The notes below the pieces were generated by a model. It searched no databases and was not told the DNA's origin. It was given only the letters and a program-made list of their open reading frames with translations. From NCBI RefSeq assembly GCF_030013205.1, contig NZ_CP122648.1: a DNA stretch of 64,000 bases, one strand, 5' to 3'. The DNA is from Escherichia coli (GTDB lineage Bacteria; Pseudomonadota; Gammaproteobacteria; Enterobacterales; Enterobacteriaceae). Made by a program: the position numbers and the translations under genes. Of the stretch, positions 6,632-45,167 are shown piece by piece. How positions within the stretch are numbered: the stretch's first letter is position 1; every line of letters begins with the position of its first letter.

Positions 6632-7246
6632 CTATCGAAACAGCGATTTAACCGCGACAGGAATTAACAGTTGTGATTGCCATTGCGCCAGCGTTAAGCG
6701 AGCCAGTTCACCCAGTGCACGGTAGAAAGGGTGTTCTGCTTTTTCGATAAAAACGTCAAGAAATCGTGTTGACCACGGAAAAAGGTGCCATGCCAGCAAT
6801 TCTTCGCATTCTGTCTGGCGACCATTCTCCGCCAACCACGCAGCCATCAACAGCAGTGAACCAAAATGATCTTCCGGTTCGTTTTGCTGCATTTCAAACT
6901 GAATGCCTTTCTCGCGCATCCACTGACGAAGTGCCAATGTTGAATCGCCAAACAGCACAGATTCGCGATCCAGCCAGACCGACCCCCACGGCGGTGATGG
7001 CAGAGCCCACGGACCGACAAACAAACGCTGCCAGGCCTGGGCGCGAGTCTCTTCACTCTGTGCCTGAAAAGCCGTCACCAGCGGCGCTAATGACGCTTCT
7101 GGTAGAGGCCACTGAGTTTCCCAGCCGTCACGGGTGAGTACCGCAACCAGAGGTGCGGCTTCCGCACTCTCTGGAGCGTAATAAAACAGCGCGCCCAACA
7201 CGCGCGCCGCGACAGAAAAATTATCTTGCTGTGAAAAATGGGTCAT
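6632..7246 (-). CDS. dmsD: Tat proofreading chaperone DmsD
   Basis: ORF 6632..7255; start at MTHFSQQDNFSVAARVLGALFYY; last gene of ynfEFGH-dmsD operon. Confidence 0.9.
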   Translation of the reverse strand: MTHFSQQDNFSVAARVLGALFYYAPESAEAAPLVAVLTRDGWETQWPLPEASLAPLVTAFQAQSEETRAQAWQRLFVGPWALPSPPWGSVWLDRESVLFGDSTLALRQWMREKGIQFEMQQNEPEDHFGSLLLMAAWLAENGRQTECEELLAWHLFPWSTRFLDVFIEKAEHPFYRALGELARLTLAQWQSQLLIPVAVKSLFR

Positions 7247-7288: not shown

Positions 7289-8143
7289 TTAACCTGCAAT
7301 AGCCATTCCTACCGTCATGTGCAGGCCATAAAAGAGCACACGCCCGATCATCTCACCGCCAAGTATGAGGATTAGCCCCAGAATAAGTCCGGCAACGTGA
7401 GGTTCACGGCGACGAATGAGCGGACAAAGCCAGCATCCTAGACCTGTGCATAACAATACCACACGCCAGACCTGTAAGGAGGCGTAATCTGGTACCAGTG
7501 CGCTGGCTTGTTGTACGGATGAGTGAATAGACGCCAGAGACAAACCTTGCAGCACAATCACCCCGGCACAAGCGATCAGCGCCAGAACGCTAATGATGGC
7601 AAATGTTGTGGTATTAAATGTAACGCGGGCTGCCCGCAGAATTGTGGCAGCAAGTATTGGACCGCTCAACAATACTGTCAGGAAGAAAGCCAGCGTAGTG
7701 TAACCGTTATACCAGGTTGGCACTGTGTCGATTTGATACACGCAGGTCATCATCCAGACGAAAATGACGCCGAGCGCCATGCTGACAAGTAACCAGAGTT
7801 TCCCCAACGCTTGCGGCATTTTACCGATGACCGCCACCAGCCACCATAATCCGCCAACGGCAAAAAATATGGAACCGGCAGCAATCTCGTTACTCAGACC
7901 AGAAGCTCCGATTCGATTCAGCGAGTTAAACGCCCGCAGTGGGGATCCCAGGTGCATGACAGAGGCAATAAACCCGATGCCCATCAACAGCCAGAGGAAA
8001 AACATGCCACGAACAATGTGCTGACGGTCTGCGTCATTTTTGGCGGCGAACCAGCCAATTCCGCTAACAATCAGCGCGCCTACTACGCATTGACCCAATA
8101 CGGTAAAGATAACCAGTGGCCATTCATGCCATCCATTTCCCAT
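7289..8143 (-). CDS. ynfH: DMSO-reductase-type membrane anchor subunit YnfH (DmsC paralogue)
   Basis: ORF 7289..8383 but real start is the ATG at 8141-8143 (MGNGWHEWPLVIF...), 284 aa, 8 TM-like segments; 1 nt after ynfG stop region. Confidence 0.85.
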   Translation of the reverse strand: MGNGWHEWPLVIFTVLGQCVVGALIVSGIGWFAAKNDADRQHIVRGMFFLWLLMGIGFIASVMHLGSPLRAFNSLNRIGASGLSNEIAAGSIFFAVGGLWWLVAVIGKMPQALGKLWLLVSMALGVIFVWMMTCVYQIDTVPTWYNGYTTLAFFLTVLLSGPILAATILRAARVTFNTTTFAIISVLALIACAGVIVLQGLSLASIHSSVQQASALVPDYASLQVWRVVLLCTGLGCWLCPLIRRREPHVAGLILGLILILGGEMIGRVLFYGLHMTVGMAIAG

Positions 8144-8144
8144 T

Positions 8145-8762
8145 TTACACTTCCTCCGGATTAGCCAGATAACCAGTGGTATCGCCGGTTGGGCGGCTGT
8201 TGGCGTTAGGTTTGATAACGATATTGGGTTTTGTGAAATGCGCGCGCGGCAGTGGCGCGACGGCAGCCAGAGTGCCGTGCTTCTGGCGCAGCTCTTCAAT
8301 TGGACCGAACTCAAGTGCACGCAGCGGGCAGGATTCGACACATATGGGTTGTTTCCCCTCGGCGACGCGCGAATAACAACCATCGCACTTCGTCATGTGC
8401 CCTTTTTCAGCATTGTACTGTGGCGCGCCGTACGGACAAGCCATGTGGCAGTAGCGGCAGCCGATACAAACATCTTCATCAACCACCACAAAGCCATCTT
8501 CACGCTTATGCATTGCGCCGCTGGGGCAGACTTTTGTACATGCGGGGTCATCGCAATGGTTACAGGAGATGGAGAGATAATAAGCGAACACGTTCTGGTG
8601 CCAGACGCCATTATCTTCCTGCCAGTCGCCGCCAGCATATTCATAAATACGGCGGAAACTGACTTCCGGGCCAAGATCTTTAAAATCTTTGCACGCCAGT
8701 TCGCAGGTTTTACAGCCAGTACAGCGGCTGGAATCGATAAAAAATCCATATTGTGTGGTCAT
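8145..8762 (-). CDS. ynfG: 4Fe-4S ferredoxin-type electron-transfer subunit YnfG (DmsB paralogue)
   Basis: 205-aa ORF with four CxxCxxCxxxCP-type cysteine clusters. Confidence 0.9.
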   Translation of the reverse strand: MTTQYGFFIDSSRCTGCKTCELACKDFKDLGPEVSFRRIYEYAGGDWQEDNGVWHQNVFAYYLSISCNHCDDPACTKVCPSGAMHKREDGFVVVDEDVCIGCRYCHMACPYGAPQYNAEKGHMTKCDGCYSRVAEGKQPICVESCPLRALEFGPIEELRQKHGTLAAVAPLPRAHFTKPNIVIKPNANSRPTGDTTGYLANPEEV

Positions 8763-8772
8763 GGGCTACTCC

Positions 8773-11199
8773 TTAAACCTTTTCGATCTGGACAAGATTG
8801 CTGTGCGACGGGTTTCCCTTTGCCAGCGGTGAAGGGCGGTGAGAGGTCAGAATATTGATACTGCCGCCGTGATCGACCCGGTCACCAAACATATCCGCTT
8901 TAAGCCACGCACCTTGCCCGATGGCGGTAACGCCAGGCAGAATACGCGGAGTCACTTTTGCGGCAATCAGCATTTCTCCATTATTGTTAAATACCCGCAC
9001 GGTATCGCCATGACGGATACCGCGTGCCTGAGCATCAATAGGGTTGATCCACACCTCTTGTGGGCAGGCCTGCTGTAACACATCAATATTGCCGTAGCTG
9101 GAGTGGGTACGCGCTTTGTAGTGGAAGCCCGTTAGCTGCAGTGGATAGGTTTTCCGCAGGGGATCGTCCCAGCCATCAAAACCTGGGGTATACGCAGGAA
9201 GGGGATGAATAATTTCATCTTTTTTCAATTCCCAGGTATCCGCAATCGTCGCCAGTCGTTCAGAATAAATTTCGATTTTCCCCGAAGGTGTTTTCAACGG
9301 GTTTGCCTGTGGATCTTCACGGAATGCGCGGAAAGCGACGTAGTGTTCTTCCGGGCATTTTTTCTTAAAGATCCCGGTCGTTTTCATCTCCTCGTAGTCG
9401 GGCATCTCAGGGTTACGTTCCTTCGTTTTCGCATGGAGATATTTGATCCATTCGTGCTGACTGCGGCCTTCAGTAAAGGTTTGATAAACGTCTGGTCCTA
9501 AGCGTTTGGCGACTTCGCTCAGCATCCAGTAGATGGGTTTGCGTTCAAATTTTGCTGAGGTTGCGGGTTGGGCGAGGATCACATAGCCCATATTCCCGGC
9601 AGATTCATGAGAGATAAGGTCTTCTTGCTCTGTTGGCATCAGGTCGGGCAACAGGATATCGCAATACTTAGCCGAGGCAGTCATGAAGTGGTCAATGCCA
9701 ACAATCATCTCGCACTTGCTGTCATCCTGAAGCACCTCATGGGTGTGATTGATGTCGCCATGTTGATTGATCAATGTGTTACTGGCGTAGCACCATAAAA
9801 ACTTGATGGGGACATCCAGTTTTTCTTTTCCACGAACACCATCACGGGTCGCGGTCATTTCCGTACCGTGGTCGATGGCATCTGTCCATGTAAAGACGGA
9901 AATCTGCGTTTTAACAGGATTCTCGAGCATCGGGAACCATTCTACCCCCAGATCCCAGCTACCTTCGCGTACACCTGAGTTGCCGCCGTTTATGCCGACG
10001 TTACCGGTGAGAACGGAAAGCATGGCAATAGCGCGGGACGTTTGTTCGCCGTTGGAGTGTCGTTGTGGCCCCCAACCCTGACAAATATAAGCAGGTTTTG
10101 CTGAACCGATCTCTCGTGCCAACTGGATAATTTTTTCTGCCGGGATGCTGGTGATTTTTGCTGCCCATTCCGGCGTTTTAGCTATGCCGTCAGGCCCTTC
10201 GCCCAGAATATAGGCTTTATAATGCGCGTTACGTGGTGCGTTGGCGGGCAGCGTTTTTTCATCGTAACCAACACAATATTTGTCGAGAAATGGCTGATCG
10301 ACCATGTTTTCAGTAATCAGTACCCAGGCAATCGCACAGGCCAGTGCGCCATCGGTGCCTGGGCGAATTGGCAGCCATTCATCTTCACGCCCGGCAGCAG
10401 TGTCGTTATAACGTGGATCGATGACGATCATGCGTGCGTTTGAACGTTCTCGGGCTTGCTCGACGTAGTAAGTGACACCACCGCCGCTCATCCGGGTTTC
10501 TGCCGGGTTATTTCCGAACATAACGACCAGTTTCGTATTGGCTATATCATCCGGGCTGTTGCCATCATTGGCACCGAACATATAACTCATTGCGGCACTG
10601 ATTTGAGCGGTACTGTAGCTGCCATAGCGACTGAGAAAACCACCGCAAGAGTTCATCAGACGGTACGGGACGTTCGAGTTGGTGATGTTTCCGCCATCTA
10701 CGCCTGTTCCGTACAGGACATGTACAGCCTCATTGCCGTATTCTTTCAGGATCCGCCGAAGATTATCACTGATGGTATCCAGGGCTTCATCCCAACTTAT
10801 CCGTTCAAATTTACCTTCACCGCGCTTGCCGACGCGCTTCATGGGATATTTCAACCTATCAGGATGATTCATCCGTCGGCGGATAGAGCGCCCGCGTAAA
10901 CACGCTCGAACCTGATGATTACCGTAGACGTCGTCACCTGTCGTATCAGACTCCACCCAGTACACGGTGTCATCTTTCACATGCAAACGTAACAGACAGC
11001 GGCTCCCGCAGTTAACGGTGCAGGAACTCCAGACCGCTTTCTCTTCTACCGGTGCCTCTGCCGCTCGGACCATTTGGGAAAATGGCAGAGTGAAAGCACT
11101 GCTTGCCAGCGCGAGACTGCCAAGTGCGGAGGTTTTCATCAGACTTCTACGGCTGATTTCAGCCTTCATGAGCGCCTCTGTGGTATGGATTTTCATCAT
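8773..11199 (-). CDS. ynfF: molybdopterin oxidoreductase catalytic subunit YnfF (DmsA paralogue, Tat signal)
   Basis: ~807-aa ORF with twin-arginine signal (SRRSLMKTSALG) and N-terminal Cys cluster; tandem paralogue of ynfE. Confidence 0.9.
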   Translation of the reverse strand: MMKIHTTEALMKAEISRRSLMKTSALGSLALASSAFTLPFSQMVRAAEAPVEEKAVWSSCTVNCGSRCLLRLHVKDDTVYWVESDTTGDDVYGNHQVRACLRGRSIRRRMNHPDRLKYPMKRVGKRGEGKFERISWDEALDTISDNLRRILKEYGNEAVHVLYGTGVDGGNITNSNVPYRLMNSCGGFLSRYGSYSTAQISAAMSYMFGANDGNSPDDIANTKLVVMFGNNPAETRMSGGGVTYYVEQARERSNARMIVIDPRYNDTAAGREDEWLPIRPGTDGALACAIAWVLITENMVDQPFLDKYCVGYDEKTLPANAPRNAHYKAYILGEGPDGIAKTPEWAAKITSIPAEKIIQLAREIGSAKPAYICQGWGPQRHSNGEQTSRAIAMLSVLTGNVGINGGNSGVREGSWDLGVEWFPMLENPVKTQISVFTWTDAIDHGTEMTATRDGVRGKEKLDVPIKFLWCYASNTLINQHGDINHTHEVLQDDSKCEMIVGIDHFMTASAKYCDILLPDLMPTEQEDLISHESAGNMGYVILAQPATSAKFERKPIYWMLSEVAKRLGPDVYQTFTEGRSQHEWIKYLHAKTKERNPEMPDYEEMKTTGIFKKKCPEEHYVAFRAFREDPQANPLKTPSGKIEIYSERLATIADTWELKKDEIIHPLPAYTPGFDGWDDPLRKTYPLQLTGFHYKARTHSSYGNIDVLQQACPQEVWINPIDAQARGIRHGDTVRVFNNNGEMLIAAKVTPRILPGVTAIGQGAWLKADMFGDRVDHGGSINILTSHRPSPLAKGNPSHSNLVQIEKV

Positions 11200-11256
11200 T
11201 ACTCACTTATTGCTTTTCAAACAAAATGTCATGCCAGAATTTATGGTTGTAGAGGG

Positions 11257-13683
11257 TTATATTTTTTCGATCTCGACCAGATTAGTGTGCTGCGGGTTTC
11301 CCTTCGCCAGTGGTGAAGGGCGCAGAGTGGTTAGCGTATTCACACAGCCGCCGTGGTCGATTTTATCGCCAGACATATTGGCCTCGTGCCAGGCTCCCTG
11401 GCCCATAGCGCTAACCCCAGGGAGAATGCGTGGTGTTACTTTGGCTGGTAGCCGAACTTCGCCACGATGGTTAAACACCCGCACCATATCGCCGTTGGCA
11501 ATCCCACGTTTCTGTGCGTCTATAGGGTTGATCCACACCTCCTGACGGCAGGCAGCCTTCAGGACATCAATGTTGCCGTAGGTCGAGTGAGTACGGGATT
11601 TGTAATGGAAACCAAACAGTTGCAGTGGAAAGGTACTACGTTCAGGGGAGTCCCAGCCTTCAAAGGTTGAGGCATAAACCGGCAGTGGGCTTATCACTTC
11701 ATCTTTTTCCAGTTCCCAGGTACGGGCAATTTCCGCCAGCTTGCTGGAATAAATTTCAATCTTACCGGAAGGCGTTTTAAGTGGATTTGCCTCGGGGTCG
11801 TCACGAAATGCTTTGTAGGCGACAAAATGACCATTAGGATCTTTACGCTTATAGATACCCATTTTTTTCAGTTCGTCGTAAGACGGTAACGCCGGATCTT
11901 TGGCAAGCATTTTGGCGTACAGATGTTGTAACCATTGTTCCTGCGTGCGACCTTCTGTGAACTTTTGATAGACGTCAGGTCCAAGACGTTTCGCGACCTC
12001 ACTCAGGATCCAGTAAATCGGTTTGCGTTCGAATTTTTCGCTGGTGACTGGCTGAAGGAAAATGAGATATCCCATGTTACCGGCGTAGTCGTTAGGAATA
12101 ATATCTTCCTGCTCAACGGTCATCAGGTCTGGCAGCAGAATGTCGGCATATTTTGCCGATGAGGTCATAAAGTTTTCGATGACCACAATCATTTCGCATT
12201 TCGATTCGTCCTGCAGAATTTCATGCGTTTTGTTGATGTCAGAATGCTGATTAACGAGGGTATTTCCCGCGTAGTTCCAGATGAACTTAATGGGCACATC
12301 CAGTTTATCTTTGCCGCGGACGCCGTCGCGGATTGCCGTCATTTGCGGGCCATGATCGATAGCATCTGTCCAGCTGAAGCAGGAGATTGACGTTTTGACC
12401 GGATTATCAAGCACCGGCAGGCGTTCTATGGTAATGGTATAGGTCGATTCACGCGCGCCACTATTTCCGCCGCTGATGCCGACATTGCCCGTCAGAATAG
12501 GCAACATCGCAATAGCGCGTGCAGTCAGCTCGCCGTTTGCCTGGCGTTGCGGTCCCCAGCCCTGACAGATATAAGCGGGTTTTGCTGTGCCAATTTCACG
12601 CGCCAGTTTGATGATACGGTCCACCGGGATACCGGTAATTTGCGAAGCCCACTGCGGCGTTTTCGCTGTTTTGTCGTCTCCTTCACCAAGAATATAGGCT
12701 TTATAGTGACCATTTTTTGGTGCATCTGCGGGTAAGGTTTTTTCGTCATAGCCGACGCAGTATTTATCGAGAAAAGGTTGATCAACGAGATTTTCGTTAA
12801 TCAATACCCAGGCAATACCCGCAACCAGCGCGGCATCGGTGCCCGGGCGAATAGGTAGCCATTCGTCTTCACGACCAGCAGCCGTATCGGTATATCGCGG
12901 ATCGATAACAATCATTTTTGCGTTCGATTTCTCTCGCGCTTTTTCAAGAAGATAAGTGATGCCACCGCCGCTCATGCGGGTTTCTGCCGGGTTGTTACCA
13001 AACATCACGACCAGCTTGCTGTTTTCAATATCCGTGGTGCTGTTGCCATCATTACTGCCGTAGGTGTAGGGCATGGCACAGGAAATTTGCGCGGTGCTGT
13101 AGGAGCCATACTGGTTGAGTGAACCGCCGTAGCAGTTCATCAGGCGTTTGACCGCCGAGGCTGATGGTGAAGAGCGGGTCATATTGCCGCCAACAATCCC
13201 CGAAGAGTACTGAATATATACAGCCTCATTGCCATATTGTTCGACGGTTTTTTTCAGGCTACTGGCGATAGTATCCAGGGCTTCATCCCAGCTAATCCGT
13301 TCGAATTTGCCTTCGCCGCGTTTGCCCACGCGTTTCATTGGGTAATTCAAGCGATCGGGATGATTAATACGCCGACGGATGGAGCGACCGCGCAAACAGG
13401 CACGTACTTGATGATTGCCATACTCGTCGTTGCCGGTGTTGTCAGTTTCCACCCAGGTCACTTCATTATCTTTAACATGCAGACGAAGTGCACAGCGGCT
13501 ACCACAGTTGACGGAACAGGCACCCCAGACCACTTTCTCGCTGGCCTGTTGTACCGCTGCCGCTGCACTGCGCAGGGTGAACGGTAAAGAAAAACCGCCT
13601 GCAGCCAGCGCCAGAGAACCTATCGCGGTAGATTTAACGAGTGTTCTGCGGCTGATGCCCACCATTTGTTCATTTTTGGACAT
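11257..13683 (-). CDS. ynfE: molybdopterin oxidoreductase catalytic subunit YnfE (selenate/DMSO reductase family)
   Basis: 808-aa ORF, twin-arginine signal (SRRTLVKSTAIG), collinear with ynfF along its length. Confidence 0.9.
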   Translation of the reverse strand: MSKNEQMVGISRRTLVKSTAIGSLALAAGGFSLPFTLRSAAAAVQQASEKVVWGACSVNCGSRCALRLHVKDNEVTWVETDNTGNDEYGNHQVRACLRGRSIRRRINHPDRLNYPMKRVGKRGEGKFERISWDEALDTIASSLKKTVEQYGNEAVYIQYSSGIVGGNMTRSSPSASAVKRLMNCYGGSLNQYGSYSTAQISCAMPYTYGSNDGNSTTDIENSKLVVMFGNNPAETRMSGGGITYLLEKAREKSNAKMIVIDPRYTDTAAGREDEWLPIRPGTDAALVAGIAWVLINENLVDQPFLDKYCVGYDEKTLPADAPKNGHYKAYILGEGDDKTAKTPQWASQITGIPVDRIIKLAREIGTAKPAYICQGWGPQRQANGELTARAIAMLPILTGNVGISGGNSGARESTYTITIERLPVLDNPVKTSISCFSWTDAIDHGPQMTAIRDGVRGKDKLDVPIKFIWNYAGNTLVNQHSDINKTHEILQDESKCEMIVVIENFMTSSAKYADILLPDLMTVEQEDIIPNDYAGNMGYLIFLQPVTSEKFERKPIYWILSEVAKRLGPDVYQKFTEGRTQEQWLQHLYAKMLAKDPALPSYDELKKMGIYKRKDPNGHFVAYKAFRDDPEANPLKTPSGKIEIYSSKLAEIARTWELEKDEVISPLPVYASTFEGWDSPERSTFPLQLFGFHYKSRTHSTYGNIDVLKAACRQEVWINPIDAQKRGIANGDMVRVFNHRGEVRLPAKVTPRILPGVSAMGQGAWHEANMSGDKIDHGGCVNTLTTLRPSPLAKGNPQHTNLVEIEKI

Positions 13684-13881
13684 AACTCACTCCCTGTTCT
13701 TTATCGTTATATAAAAGTTTATATATTGAATATTTAGCGCGCTAACAATAGAGGGGGTCTACCTATTTTGGGTTAAGAATTATTAATCCATATCAATAGA
13801 AGGGTATGAGTAATAAGGTGGGATTATGTTGTATGTTCAAATCGCCGGATGTGTCGTATCCGGCGTGCAGTCGATAATGTA

Positions 13882-19043: not shown

Positions 19044-20339
19044 TTAATTTTTCATTGCTTCGTTATGGGGCATGGTTGGGGCAAACTCGCTTAACTGTGT
19101 ATTTAACAAAGCTACCTGTGCATTATTGTTTTCAGACATCCATTTTCCGTATACCTGAAATACCATTTGCGCATCTGCATGGCCCATCTGGTTTGCTATA
19201 AATGCCGGGTTAGCACCAGCTGTCAGCGACCAGCAGGCATAAGTATGTCTCGACTGATATGATTTTCGATGGCGGAGTCCGGCACGTTTTATCGCTGCGT
19301 CCCACATCTGCCTTATTGAGTCAACGGTAAAATGGTCACCATAATTTTTTACTCTCGCTGACACTTCAGGTTGAAAAACAAAGGTGCATTTTTGTTTTTC
19401 TGTTCTGCCATACTCTCTGAGGTGAACATCAATGATATGCTCTTTGCTCAGTCTCGTTAATGTCATCTGACTCCGGAGAGCGTCGATTGCTGGCTTAATA
19501 AGATGAATGACCCGATTGGTTCCCGCCTGTGTTTTTGGTACCGTGAAACGGTCTTTTGCTAAATTTCTCCTGATCATCATTGTTCCATTTTTCAGATCTA
19601 TGTCCTCCCATCCAAGTGCACACAGCTCACCAGGGCGAACTCCAGTATAAACAGAAACACACCATAAATTTTTTGCTTGCTGATTTCTGCACGCATCGAT
19701 AAGACGGATAAATTCTTCCCGCGAAAGAGGATCCGGAATGGTTCTTGATTCCTTTAATGGCGAGATCCCCTTAAACGGATTATCTGCCAGGTAACCGTTA
19801 TCAACACCAAACTGGAACACGGCGTTAAGATTTGTCATGTAATTATTTACAGTTACAGCCGATCTCCCTGGTTGTGTAACAATATAGTTACTTTTGGGGA
19901 TCTGGTATCCAGTCAGTAACTCTTTACGAACCTCCAGTAATTTTTCTTTATTAATCGATGAGGCAAGATTTTTTTCACCGATTATGCTCAGGATATTTTT
20001 GATGACGGCACGGTATGTGTTGAGTGATGTTTTGGCGACTTCAGTTTCTTTCAGTGCCAGAAATTTTTCAGCCAGTTCTTTTATGGTTAAATCTTGTCGG
20101 GCCTCACCAAATTTTTCCAGATTGCGTGAGGAGGGAAACTGTTTTGCATAGTCGAAAACACCAGTTTTTATTGCGTAACAAACAGAGGAGCGTAGTTCAC
20201 CTGCAACGCGCCTGTTTTTTGCTGTGTCAGGAACCCCCAGATTTTCCCTGACTCTTACGTCTTTATAAACAAACCAGATACGTAATTTCCCTCCATGGTT
20301 TTCCACGCCTGTCGGATATTTCATTTCAACTTCTCTCAT
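19044..20339 (-). CDS. intQ: tyrosine-type phage integrase (apparently intact)
   Basis: 431-aa ORF adjacent to att core, with C-terminal catalytic R...HxxR...Y-type region (RHRKSYQSRHTYACW); internal ATG at 20324 (MKYPTGV) may be the true start. Confidence 0.85.
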   Translation of the reverse strand: MREVEMKYPTGVENHGGKLRIWFVYKDVRVRENLGVPDTAKNRRVAGELRSSVCYAIKTGVFDYAKQFPSSRNLEKFGEARQDLTIKELAEKFLALKETEVAKTSLNTYRAVIKNILSIIGEKNLASSINKEKLLEVRKELLTGYQIPKSNYIVTQPGRSAVTVNNYMTNLNAVFQFGVDNGYLADNPFKGISPLKESRTIPDPLSREEFIRLIDACRNQQAKNLWCVSVYTGVRPGELCALGWEDIDLKNGTMMIRRNLAKDRFTVPKTQAGTNRVIHLIKPAIDALRSQMTLTRLSKEHIIDVHLREYGRTEKQKCTFVFQPEVSARVKNYGDHFTVDSIRQMWDAAIKRAGLRHRKSYQSRHTYACWSLTAGANPAFIANQMGHADAQMVFQVYGKWMSENNNAQVALLNTQLSEFAPTMPHNEAMKN

Positions 20340-44576: not shown

Positions 44577-45167
44577 TTATATGTCAGGTGTCTGAAGTTT
44601 TGCTTTGGCTCTTAAAATGGTTTGCCGCGAGGTTTTGAATTCCCGGGCAATGGCACTTATACTTACACCTGACTTAATTCGTTCGAATACCGCCTGTTTC
44701 TGTTCTTCATTTAACACAGGTGGTCGACCAAAACGTTTCCCTGCGCCGCGGGCACTTACTATCCCGGAATGAGTGCGTTCAAGTAAAAGGTCTCGTTCAA
44801 ATTCAGCGACTGCTGAAATTACTTGCATCATCATTTTTCCTGTTGGACTGGTCAGGTCAATGCCCCCCAATGCTAAGCAATGCACTCTGATACCTGTTTC
44901 GGTCAGTTGTTCCACTGTTTTCCTGATATCCATTGCATTACAACCAAGGCGATCCAGTTTTGTCACAATCAATTGATCACCACATTTCAGGCGAGCAAGC
45001 AACCGGTTAAAACCAGGACGCTCACTGGTTGCTGCTGAGCCGCTAATGTGTTCTTCGATTATTTGCTGAGGTTTGATTTTAAAACCTGCACTTTCGATTT
45101 CCCGGCGTTGATTTTCGGTGGTCTGATCCAGCGTTGATATCCGACAGTAAGCAAAAATTCGAGACAT
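44577..45167 (-). CDS. pinQ: serine recombinase DNA invertase Pin
   Basis: 196-aa [23 protein letters not shown]... with catalytic Ser in YCRIST and C-terminal HTH. Confidence 0.95.

Follow-up and report, generated by a model that had tools for sequence, protein, structure and literature searches.

The subject of this analysis is the tandem gene pair ynfE-ynfF, together with natural fusions between its two members, in a 64,000-nucleotide (nt) stretch of Escherichia coli DNA (contig NZ_CP122648.1 of assembly GCF_030013205.1; the whole stretch is called the window below). In the list of open reading frames (ORFs) both genes lie on the minus strand with ynfE on the right and ynfF on the left, head-to-tail, in the same orientation and collinear over their full length. 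They are followed directly and on the same strand by ynfG, ynfH and dmsD and then by clcB, and are preceded by ynfD, ynfC, speG, ynfB and ynfA, so that gene order and the flanking genes ynfD and clcB are those of the ynfEFGH-dmsD operon of E. coli and Salmonella, on which Lubitz & Weiner 2003, Guymer et al. 2009 and Fujita et al. 2021 have reportedly worked. The features of the locus are as follows, with coordinates given as positions in the window:

11257..13683, minus strand: ynfE, ORF of 808 amino acids (aa) and first gene of the operon; predicted catalytic subunit with molybdo-bis(pyranopterin guanine dinucleotide) (Mo-bisPGD) and a [4Fe-4S] cluster, selenate/tellurate reductase.
13633..13653, minus strand: twin-arginine motif SRRTLVK of the twin-arginine translocation (Tat) signal of YnfE, at aa 11, found by motif search.
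13396..13518, minus strand: Cys cluster C-x3-C-x3-C-x31-C of YnfE, aa 56-96, within PF04879; predicted [4Fe-4S] site.
11200..11256, minus strand: ynfE-ynfF intergenic spacer of 57 base pairs (bp), giving a start-to-start repeat period of 2,484 bp.
8773..11199, minus strand: ynfF, ORF of 808 aa, tandem paralogue of ynfE.
11134..11154, minus strand: Tat twin-arginine motif SRRSLMK of YnfF, at aa 16; the signal peptide is DmsA-like, unlike that of YnfE (PMC5203670).
10900..11022, minus strand: Cys cluster C-x3-C-x3-C-x31-C of YnfF, aa 60-100, within PF04879.
8145..8762, minus strand: ynfG, four-cluster Fe-S electron-transfer subunit, DmsB paralogue (TIGR02951, 264.8 vs 214.1; Fer4_11).
7289..8143, minus strand: ynfH, membrane anchor and quinol-oxidising subunit of the DmsC family (PF04976 at 6e-127).
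6632..7246, minus strand: dmsD, Tat proofreading chaperone (NF008632, 343.7 vs 162).

YnfE passes its own NCBIfam model NF041885 (1798.8 > 1675) and fails the YnfF model, and YnfF passes NF041884 (1774.5 > 1650) and fails the YnfE model. Both exceed the cutoff of the DmsA/YnfE/YnfF family model TIGR02166 (777.7; YnfE 1399.2, YnfF 1286.1) and both miss the DmsA-specific NCBIfam cutoff of 1600 (YnfE 1346, YnfF 1321). The 4.9-kb stretch is 100% identical to that of E. coli O139:H1 W13-16, in whose RefSeq record the genes are named ynfE and ynfF, and thousands of other E. coli chromosomes match it at 98-99%; nothing in the window sets this operon apart from the known one (98-100% DNA identity to E. 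coli RefSeq records). The names given in the original prediction therefore agree with both family scores and annotation, and its description of full-length tandem paralogues is confirmed by two 808-aa ORFs with exactly the limits it gave, 57 bp apart and 71% identical in aa sequence from end to end. At the start of ynfF there are two consecutive ATG codons (window 11196-11199), and RefSeq picks the second, at 11196, giving a protein of 807 aa; the dmsD ORF can also be read from an upstream ATG, giving 207 aa as opposed to the 204 aa in RefSeq.

The proposal that both products are Tat-exported molybdoenzymes with Cys clusters is likewise supported at the level of prediction. A hydrophobic stretch follows the twin-arginine motif in each protein, as in a predicted Tat signal, the C-x3-C-x3-C-x31-C cluster is present in both, and both have the Pfam architecture PF04879 (Molybdop_Fe4S4), PF00384 (Molybdopterin) and PF01568 (Molydop_binding), with all scores above the gathering scores. 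Genetic work in E. coli and Salmonella ties the pair to selenate and tellurate reduction. In the literature most selenate reduction is ascribed to YnfE and little to YnfF (PMC5203670, Connelly et al. 2016), the two proteins of Salmonella are likewise 71% identical, and their signal peptides, like that of DmsA, are bound by DmsD (PMC5203670). The two proteins have been termed 'paralogous selenate reductase isoenzymes', with a delta-ynfEF mutant of E. coli losing Se(VI) reduction (PMC12724226), and have been described as DmsA paralogues (PMC12096835); the latter source also cites Fujita 2021 for tellurate reduction by the pair. Taken together with family membership, this suggests that YnfE and YnfF are alternative catalytic subunits of a membrane-bound, periplasm-facing enzyme of the dimethyl sulfoxide (DMSO) reductase family, each of which is expected to dock onto the same module of YnfG (Fe-S) and YnfH (quinol anchor). 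A sequence search of the PDB returned no structure of DmsA, YnfE or YnfF, the closest being the Rhodobacter DMSO reductase 1eu1, and also trimethylamine N-oxide reductases.

Among the closest known systems is DmsABC; dmsA is a third paralogue elsewhere on the chromosome, with the same TIGR02166 family and domain architecture. DmsABC shares with YnfE and YnfF the Tat signal bound by DmsD, the C-x3-C-x3-C motif and the B/C partner subunits; in DmsA the spacer before the fourth Cys is one residue longer, and dmsA is a single gene, unlike the tandem ynfE-ynfF. YnfE and YnfF are 68% and 67% identical in aa sequence to K-12 DmsA, respectively, and closer to each other (71%), and in a neighbour-joining tree without support values the F clade is sister to the E clade, with DmsA outside the E+F group. 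Publications already cover the gene pair, what it does and how it is related to dmsA as a paralogue, and the feature as it stands in the window is known and ordinary.

A BLASTP comparison of YnfE and YnfF gave 568/801 identities (71%), 85% positives and 9 gap positions, collinear throughout, while a codon-guided DNA alignment gave 70.0% identity, with 79% at the first, 84% at the second and 47% at the third codon position; a repeat search likewise found direct repeats spaced by 2,484/2,496 bp with 71-78% identity. With the Nei-Gojobori method (NG86) the proportion of synonymous differences (pS) was 0.70, the synonymous divergence (dS) 2.06, which is effectively saturated, and the nonsynonymous divergence (dN) 0.21, giving a dN/dS of about 0.1. 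As dS is saturated and dN is 0.21, both copies have been under purifying selection for a long time, and on these sequence comparisons the pair is an old tandem duplication, neither recent nor a collapsing repeat. In the window, ynfE and ynfF share at most 20 consecutive identical nt (17 nt for the K-12 pair). Since shuffled codon columns give a longest run of 20.8 +/- 3.7 (p = 0.63), there is no sign of recent gene conversion in the window, and this reading was rejected. Some alleles have scattered E-like sites in their F parts, which resemble ordinary polymorphism, bar one weak cluster: B2-type ynfF alleles have several ynfE-like bases grouped at nt 1953-2048 (window about 9152-9247), which could stem from an old conversion over a short patch or from polymorphisms that happen to coincide.

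The original prediction had described the pair as a substrate for unequal recombination, which a nucleotide identity below 60% would have made unlikely; the DNA alignment gave 70%, and the claim survives. We searched 5,426 complete E. coli genomes with a single query in which 2.5 kb of each flank were joined, so that a full-length single match is only obtained if the flanks are less than 3 kb apart. This was the case in 15/5,426 genomes, and in 10 of these (0.18% of the total) one intact, 2,427-nt ynfE'-'ynfF hybrid replaces both genes, representing two independent events. Eight of the ten contain the hybrid WP_104457354.1 as the sole intact gene between ynfD and ynfG: ECONIH4 (USA), CAVP776 (Virginia) and six isolates from Alberta. 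The records fetched for ECONIH4, CAVP776 and 0H26 are identical over 7.4 kb, and the remaining five genomes do not differ from them in match length, score or annotated product. When the related strain AW1.7 is taken as parent, a single E-to-F crossover within an 8-nt tract accounts for 688/688 diagnostic sites of this ECONIH4-type hybrid. The other two of the 15 genomes with a hybrid, JCC-EE 7 and FELIX_MS533, carry a different one, WP_256683566.1, in which 747/747 diagnostic sites fit a single E-to-F crossover between K-12 parents within a 14-nt tract. Two further hybrids, P0020 and P0021, were found among 40 listed members of the protein cluster which holds the ECONIH4-type hybrid; in the NCBI assemblies and in the independent Logan ones, all of them drafts, no other gene lies between ynfD and ynfG. 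The four crossover tracts are located as follows:

12980..12993, minus strand: K-12-type crossover tract AACCCGGCAGAAAC, 14 nt, ynfE nt 691-704, ynfF partner at 10496-10509 (JCC-EE 7, FELIX_MS533).
12655..12663, minus strand: P0020 crossover tract AAAACGCCG, 9 nt, ynfE nt 1021-1029, ynfF partner at 10171-10179.
12530..12537, minus strand: ECONIH4-type crossover tract AACGGCGA, 8 nt, ynfE nt 1147-1154, ynfF partner at 10046-10053 (WP_104457354.1).
12391..12396, minus strand: P0021 crossover tract AAAACG, 6 nt, ynfE nt 1288-1293, ynfF partner at 9907-9912.

The tracts of 14, 9, 8 and 6 nt are all exactly in register, and each of the four hybrids is an exact one-period (2,484-bp) deletion which leaves an 808-codon ORF with all three Pfam domains. 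There are thus at least four independent ynfE'-'ynfF fusions within E. coli, and the suggested substrate for unequal recombination is borne out by natural hybrids, albeit rare ones (10/5,426). We found no published reports of natural ynfE-ynfF hybrids in the literature searched, which largely lacks subscription journals. Five short or generically annotated alleles were considered as hybrids and rejected. The short allele of AZ 191 is an out-of-register deletion from ynfE nt 834 to ynfF nt 282, and that of FDAARGOS_1285 a deletion from ynfE nt 1070 to ynfG, both pseudogenes with essentially no microhomology at the junction; in NT1F34, STEC388 and AW1.7 ynfE is broken by foreign DNA, IS110 and IS5, respectively.

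A tandem pair of paralogues raises the concern, reasonable in general, that an assembler has merged the copies, and the original prediction had also named the pair as a possible source of assembly collapse. If so, the hybrids would be artefacts of assembly or annotation rather than products of recombination, and P0020 and P0021 do stem from short-read draft assemblies. However, the longest word shared by the two genes is 20 nt, so that no merging is expected in a de Bruijn graph at k of at least 21, nor in long-read overlaps, as 70% identity lies outside long-read error, and third codon positions are near saturation. The 4.9-kb two-gene query is at least 80% covered in a single place in 5,126 complete genomes, the ECONIH4-type hybrid occurs in closed genomes from different submitters (USA, Virginia, Alberta) with its protein on 68 contigs, the NCBI and Logan assemblies agree for the P0020 and P0021 samples, and every hybrid has one clean switch at all diagnostic sites and no mosaic. 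Collapse of the pair was therefore rejected, and we consider it extremely improbable that the hybrids are artefacts.

We expanded the comparison to other genera with one degenerate-pattern scan of species-representative genomes, in which the syntenic loci were compared. A tandem ynfE + ynfF arrangement was found in Escherichia, E. albertii and Pseudocitrobacter, a single E-type gene in Klebsiella, Enterobacter, Kluyvera, Kosakonia, Lelliottia, Cedecea, Mangrovibacter and some Citrobacter, a single F-type gene in other Citrobacter, and an E-type gene followed by a DmsA-type gene in Serratia and Rahnella. One gene occupies the syntenic locus in Citrobacter werkmanii, C. youngae CCUG 30791 and three more Citrobacter species. 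Its upstream region and signal peptide match those of ynfE from E. coli and Citrobacter (in the first ~180 columns of the alignment, DNA identity is 73-90% to ynfE of Citrobacter vs 41-52% to ynfF of E. coli), whereas from about codon 50 it is F-type, with 90% aa identity to E. coli YnfF vs 71% to YnfE. The YnfF proteins of E. albertii and Pseudocitrobacter have a DmsA-like signal peptide, as does that of Salmonella (PMC5203670). Since YnfF elsewhere keeps the DmsA-like signal and the F-type body in Citrobacter is preceded by an E-type signal, this points to a fusion with its junction just after the signal peptide, and the Citrobacter gene is best read as an older ynfE'-'ynfF hybrid which became fixed in several species and is the sole copy there.

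The same survey gave further arrangements of the family. In Serratia and Rahnella (Yersiniaceae) the ynfE-type gene lies directly upstream of a dmsA-type gene (81-82% identical to E. coli DmsA) followed by B/C/D genes, and Budvicia has two complete units in tandem, E-B-H and A-B-H-D; tandem arrays of DmsA-family catalytic genes are thus widespread, with differing partners. The type-strain draft of E. albertii NBRC 107761 has contig ends inside ynfE, at about codon 506 and about codon 620, and its ynfF frame is split into two ORFs. Outside the ynf locus, YnfF-like genes were seen in Serratia sp. H1w (78% identical to E. coli YnfF) and on a 4.9-kb contig of a Deferribacteraceae metagenome-assembled genome (70%); the latter contig is short and was assigned to a distant phylum, which points to either misbinning or horizontal transfer.

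Gene loss is also seen at the locus: 546/5,426 complete E. coli genomes (10%), for example AR_0089, have an intact ynfE with a ynfF pseudogene, in which two internal deletions have removed nt 718-1297 (580 bp) and nt 2072-2345 (274 bp). This class, which has 83% coverage of the query, was rejected as ynfE/ynfF recombinants, as both deletions are confined to ynfF and lack notable microhomology. A 6.37-kb deletion (window 7476-13842) in 89 complete genomes, including uropathogenic E. coli (UPEC) 536, removes ynfE, ynfF, ynfG and the 5' part of ynfH and keeps dmsD, with flanks overlapping by 12 nt at the junction. Insertion sequences (ISs) in ynfE are tolerated, and with the 546 ynfF pseudogenes and the 89 deletions the operon is under visibly weak selection. 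About 12% of complete E. coli genomes thus lack an intact ynfF or the whole ynfEFG segment, so that strain background matters for work on the reduction of S-/N-oxides, selenate and tellurate, and ynfF decay bears on studies measuring ynfF expression or function in such strains.

Our favoured explanation for the whole of these observations, to which we give a probability of about 0.9, is that this is the ynfE-ynfF pair heading the E. coli ynfEFGH-dmsD operon, and that it recurrently gives rise to one-period hybrids by homology-guided misalignment. Because the copies are adjacent, co-oriented and collinear, they could misalign by exactly one repeat period of 2,484 bp, and an exchange between the misaligned copies would delete one unit and leave a single in-frame ynfE'-'ynfF hybrid, whose expression would be driven by the ynfE promoter and whose product would carry the YnfE signal peptide. 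The misalignment would be guided by the homology of the diverged repeats and resolved at short identical tracts, either by template switching between sister copies independently of RecA or by homeologous recombination escaping mismatch repair; this is the pathway we favour. Four of the six small deletions anchored in ynfE are exactly in register, each with a probability of about 1/2,427 by chance, and this excess combined with the free decay of the operon argues that misalignment is guided by the overall similarity of the copies.

The register could also have been imposed afterwards, if deletions arose at random microhomologies and only the in-register ones survived by selection for a working reductase. 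Out-of-register deletions do exist, in AZ 191 and FDAARGOS_1285, and every hybrid retains an intact 808-aa ORF with three Pfam domains, as such selection would give. With in-register deletions expected at only ~1/2,400, however, the observed four vs two would need near-complete purging of the out-of-register class, which is difficult to match with the weak selection evident from the pseudogenes, the ynfE-ynfH' deletions and the IS insertions, and we regard this explanation as very unlikely.

A closer competitor is ordinary homologous (homeologous) unequal crossing-over by RecA/RecBCD between misaligned sister chromosomes, perhaps in mismatch-repair-deficient (mutator) backgrounds. In all four E. 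coli events, as in that of Citrobacter, register is kept exactly over a diverged 2.4-kb repeat, as extended pairing would give. The K-12-type junction falls in one of the longest stretches of identity, and its surroundings rank in the top percentile for local identity (0.86-0.90 within +/-25 nt). The other three junctions have average surroundings, so that a preference for windows of locally high identity is not supported overall. For efficient RecBCD/RecA recombination in E. coli, Shen & Huang 1986 reportedly put the minimum at roughly 23-27 bp; by that figure the pair lacks a long enough tract, the maximum being 20 nt, and as the crossover tracts are only 6-14 nt, RecA recombination is not the obvious route. 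No reciprocal duplication product has been seen, and nearby direct repeats in E. coli are deleted without RecA by template switching in post-replication gaps (PMC7145654). Crossing-over of this type is in our view possible, though on the doubtful side.

Several points weigh against homology-guided misalignment and the hybrid enzymes it would produce. The hybrids are rare, at only 0.18% of complete genomes. The pair makes a poor substrate for classical recombination, its longest identical tract being 20 nt (17 nt in K-12), and the junctions do not consistently lie in windows of locally high identity. The reciprocal product, a triplication with the order ynfE - F'/'E - ynfF, was not identified in the complete genomes with a spacer-region query, for which the upper bound is 11 genomes: the query matched 5,304 places in 5,293 genomes with a maximum of two per genome, and the surplus of 11 is comparable to the number of genomes (14) in which the best match spans less than 80% of the query, a pattern expected from split or truncated matches. 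The two-copy genomes are more simply explained as IS-split matches, and absence of a triplication would not separate the mechanisms, because such an array, with its long perfect repeats, would be unstable. As far as activity is concerned, that the hybrids would be active domain-swapped enzymes is a prediction, and there are substitutions in the CLRGRSIRRR motif, which is otherwise identical in YnfE, YnfF and DmsA (ynfE codons 99-103, window about 13375-13389): R103W in the ECONIH4-type and R99C in the K-12-type hybrid. R103W is also found in 23 non-hybrid genomes, and in all three of these that were examined ynfE is separately disrupted (STEC388 by IS110, AW1.7 by IS5 and NT1F34 by truncation), while R99C occurs only in the two genomes with the K-12-type hybrid; both may mark an earlier loss of YnfE function. 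Mo-bisPGD binding and the reduction of selenate and tellurate (or S-/N-oxides) by the proteins of the window are assigned from the literature, and since the tree has no support values, it leaves uncertain how old the E/F duplication is and how it is polarised across genera.

Two known systems resemble the fusions. In the deletion assays of the Lovett laboratory one unit is precisely lost between close direct repeats by RecA-independent template switching or slipped misalignment, and the difference lies in the repeats, which were perfect, 101-787 bp long and on plasmids, vs 2.4 kb, 30% diverged and chromosomal for ynfE/ynfF (PMC7145654). The second likeness is to Lepore-type fusions (delta/beta-globin, CYP11B1/B2 and CYP21A1P/A2; for example PMC4041002 and PMC8750845), which likewise arise by one-unit misalignment of adjacent, co-oriented paralogues. 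Shared features are an in-frame chimera with the promoter and N-terminus of the 5' gene and the C-terminus of the 3' gene, and recurrence with differing breakpoints. Human Lepore-type gene pairs are more than 90% identical, whereas the parents of the ynf hybrids are only 70% identical and their junction tracts are 6-14 nt long. A further difference is that in a haploid bacterium the exchange would take place between sister chromosomes or within one replicating molecule, and no 'anti-Lepore' product has been seen.

Elsewhere in the window, a Qin-like cryptic prophage adjoins rspAB at about 19044-45800 and ends at a truncated ydfJ. It contains an integrase gene (19044-20324), an excisionase gene, dicB/dicA/dicC, relBE, hokD, the cold-shock genes cspB/F/I, lysis genes and pinQ (about 44577-45167). 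The window is collinear with W13-16 and at least 99.9% identical over the compared parts, and lacks the 2.7-kb IS66 insertion which W13-16 has at about 41960.

The assembly of this textbook operon is correct, and ynfEFGH-dmsD is the annotation it should carry. Single genes at this locus which are labelled 'DmsA/YnfE/YnfF family' or 'YnfF' can be ynfE'-'ynfF hybrids, and pangenome or metabolic-model pipelines which treat ynfE and ynfF as separate orthogroups mis-score them. The broader proposition, that bacterial tandem paralogues with 30% divergence recurrently lose exactly one unit at 6-14-nt tracts and so yield viable domain-swapped molybdoenzymes, one of which has replaced both parents in a group of Citrobacter species, falls just short of an even bet in our estimate. 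If it is true, the locus would be a chromosomal reporter in natural populations for homology-guided recombination which is independent of long identical tracts or escapes mismatch repair, and if the hybrids are active they would represent natural chimeragenesis, mapping the segments which are interchangeable between YnfE and YnfF. The hybrids are a natural bacterial counterpart of the Lepore-type fusion between strongly diverged paralogues, with a junction spectrum which can be used to study such exchanges, and their recurrence, including the one fixed in Citrobacter, is a small but testable addition to a textbook locus.

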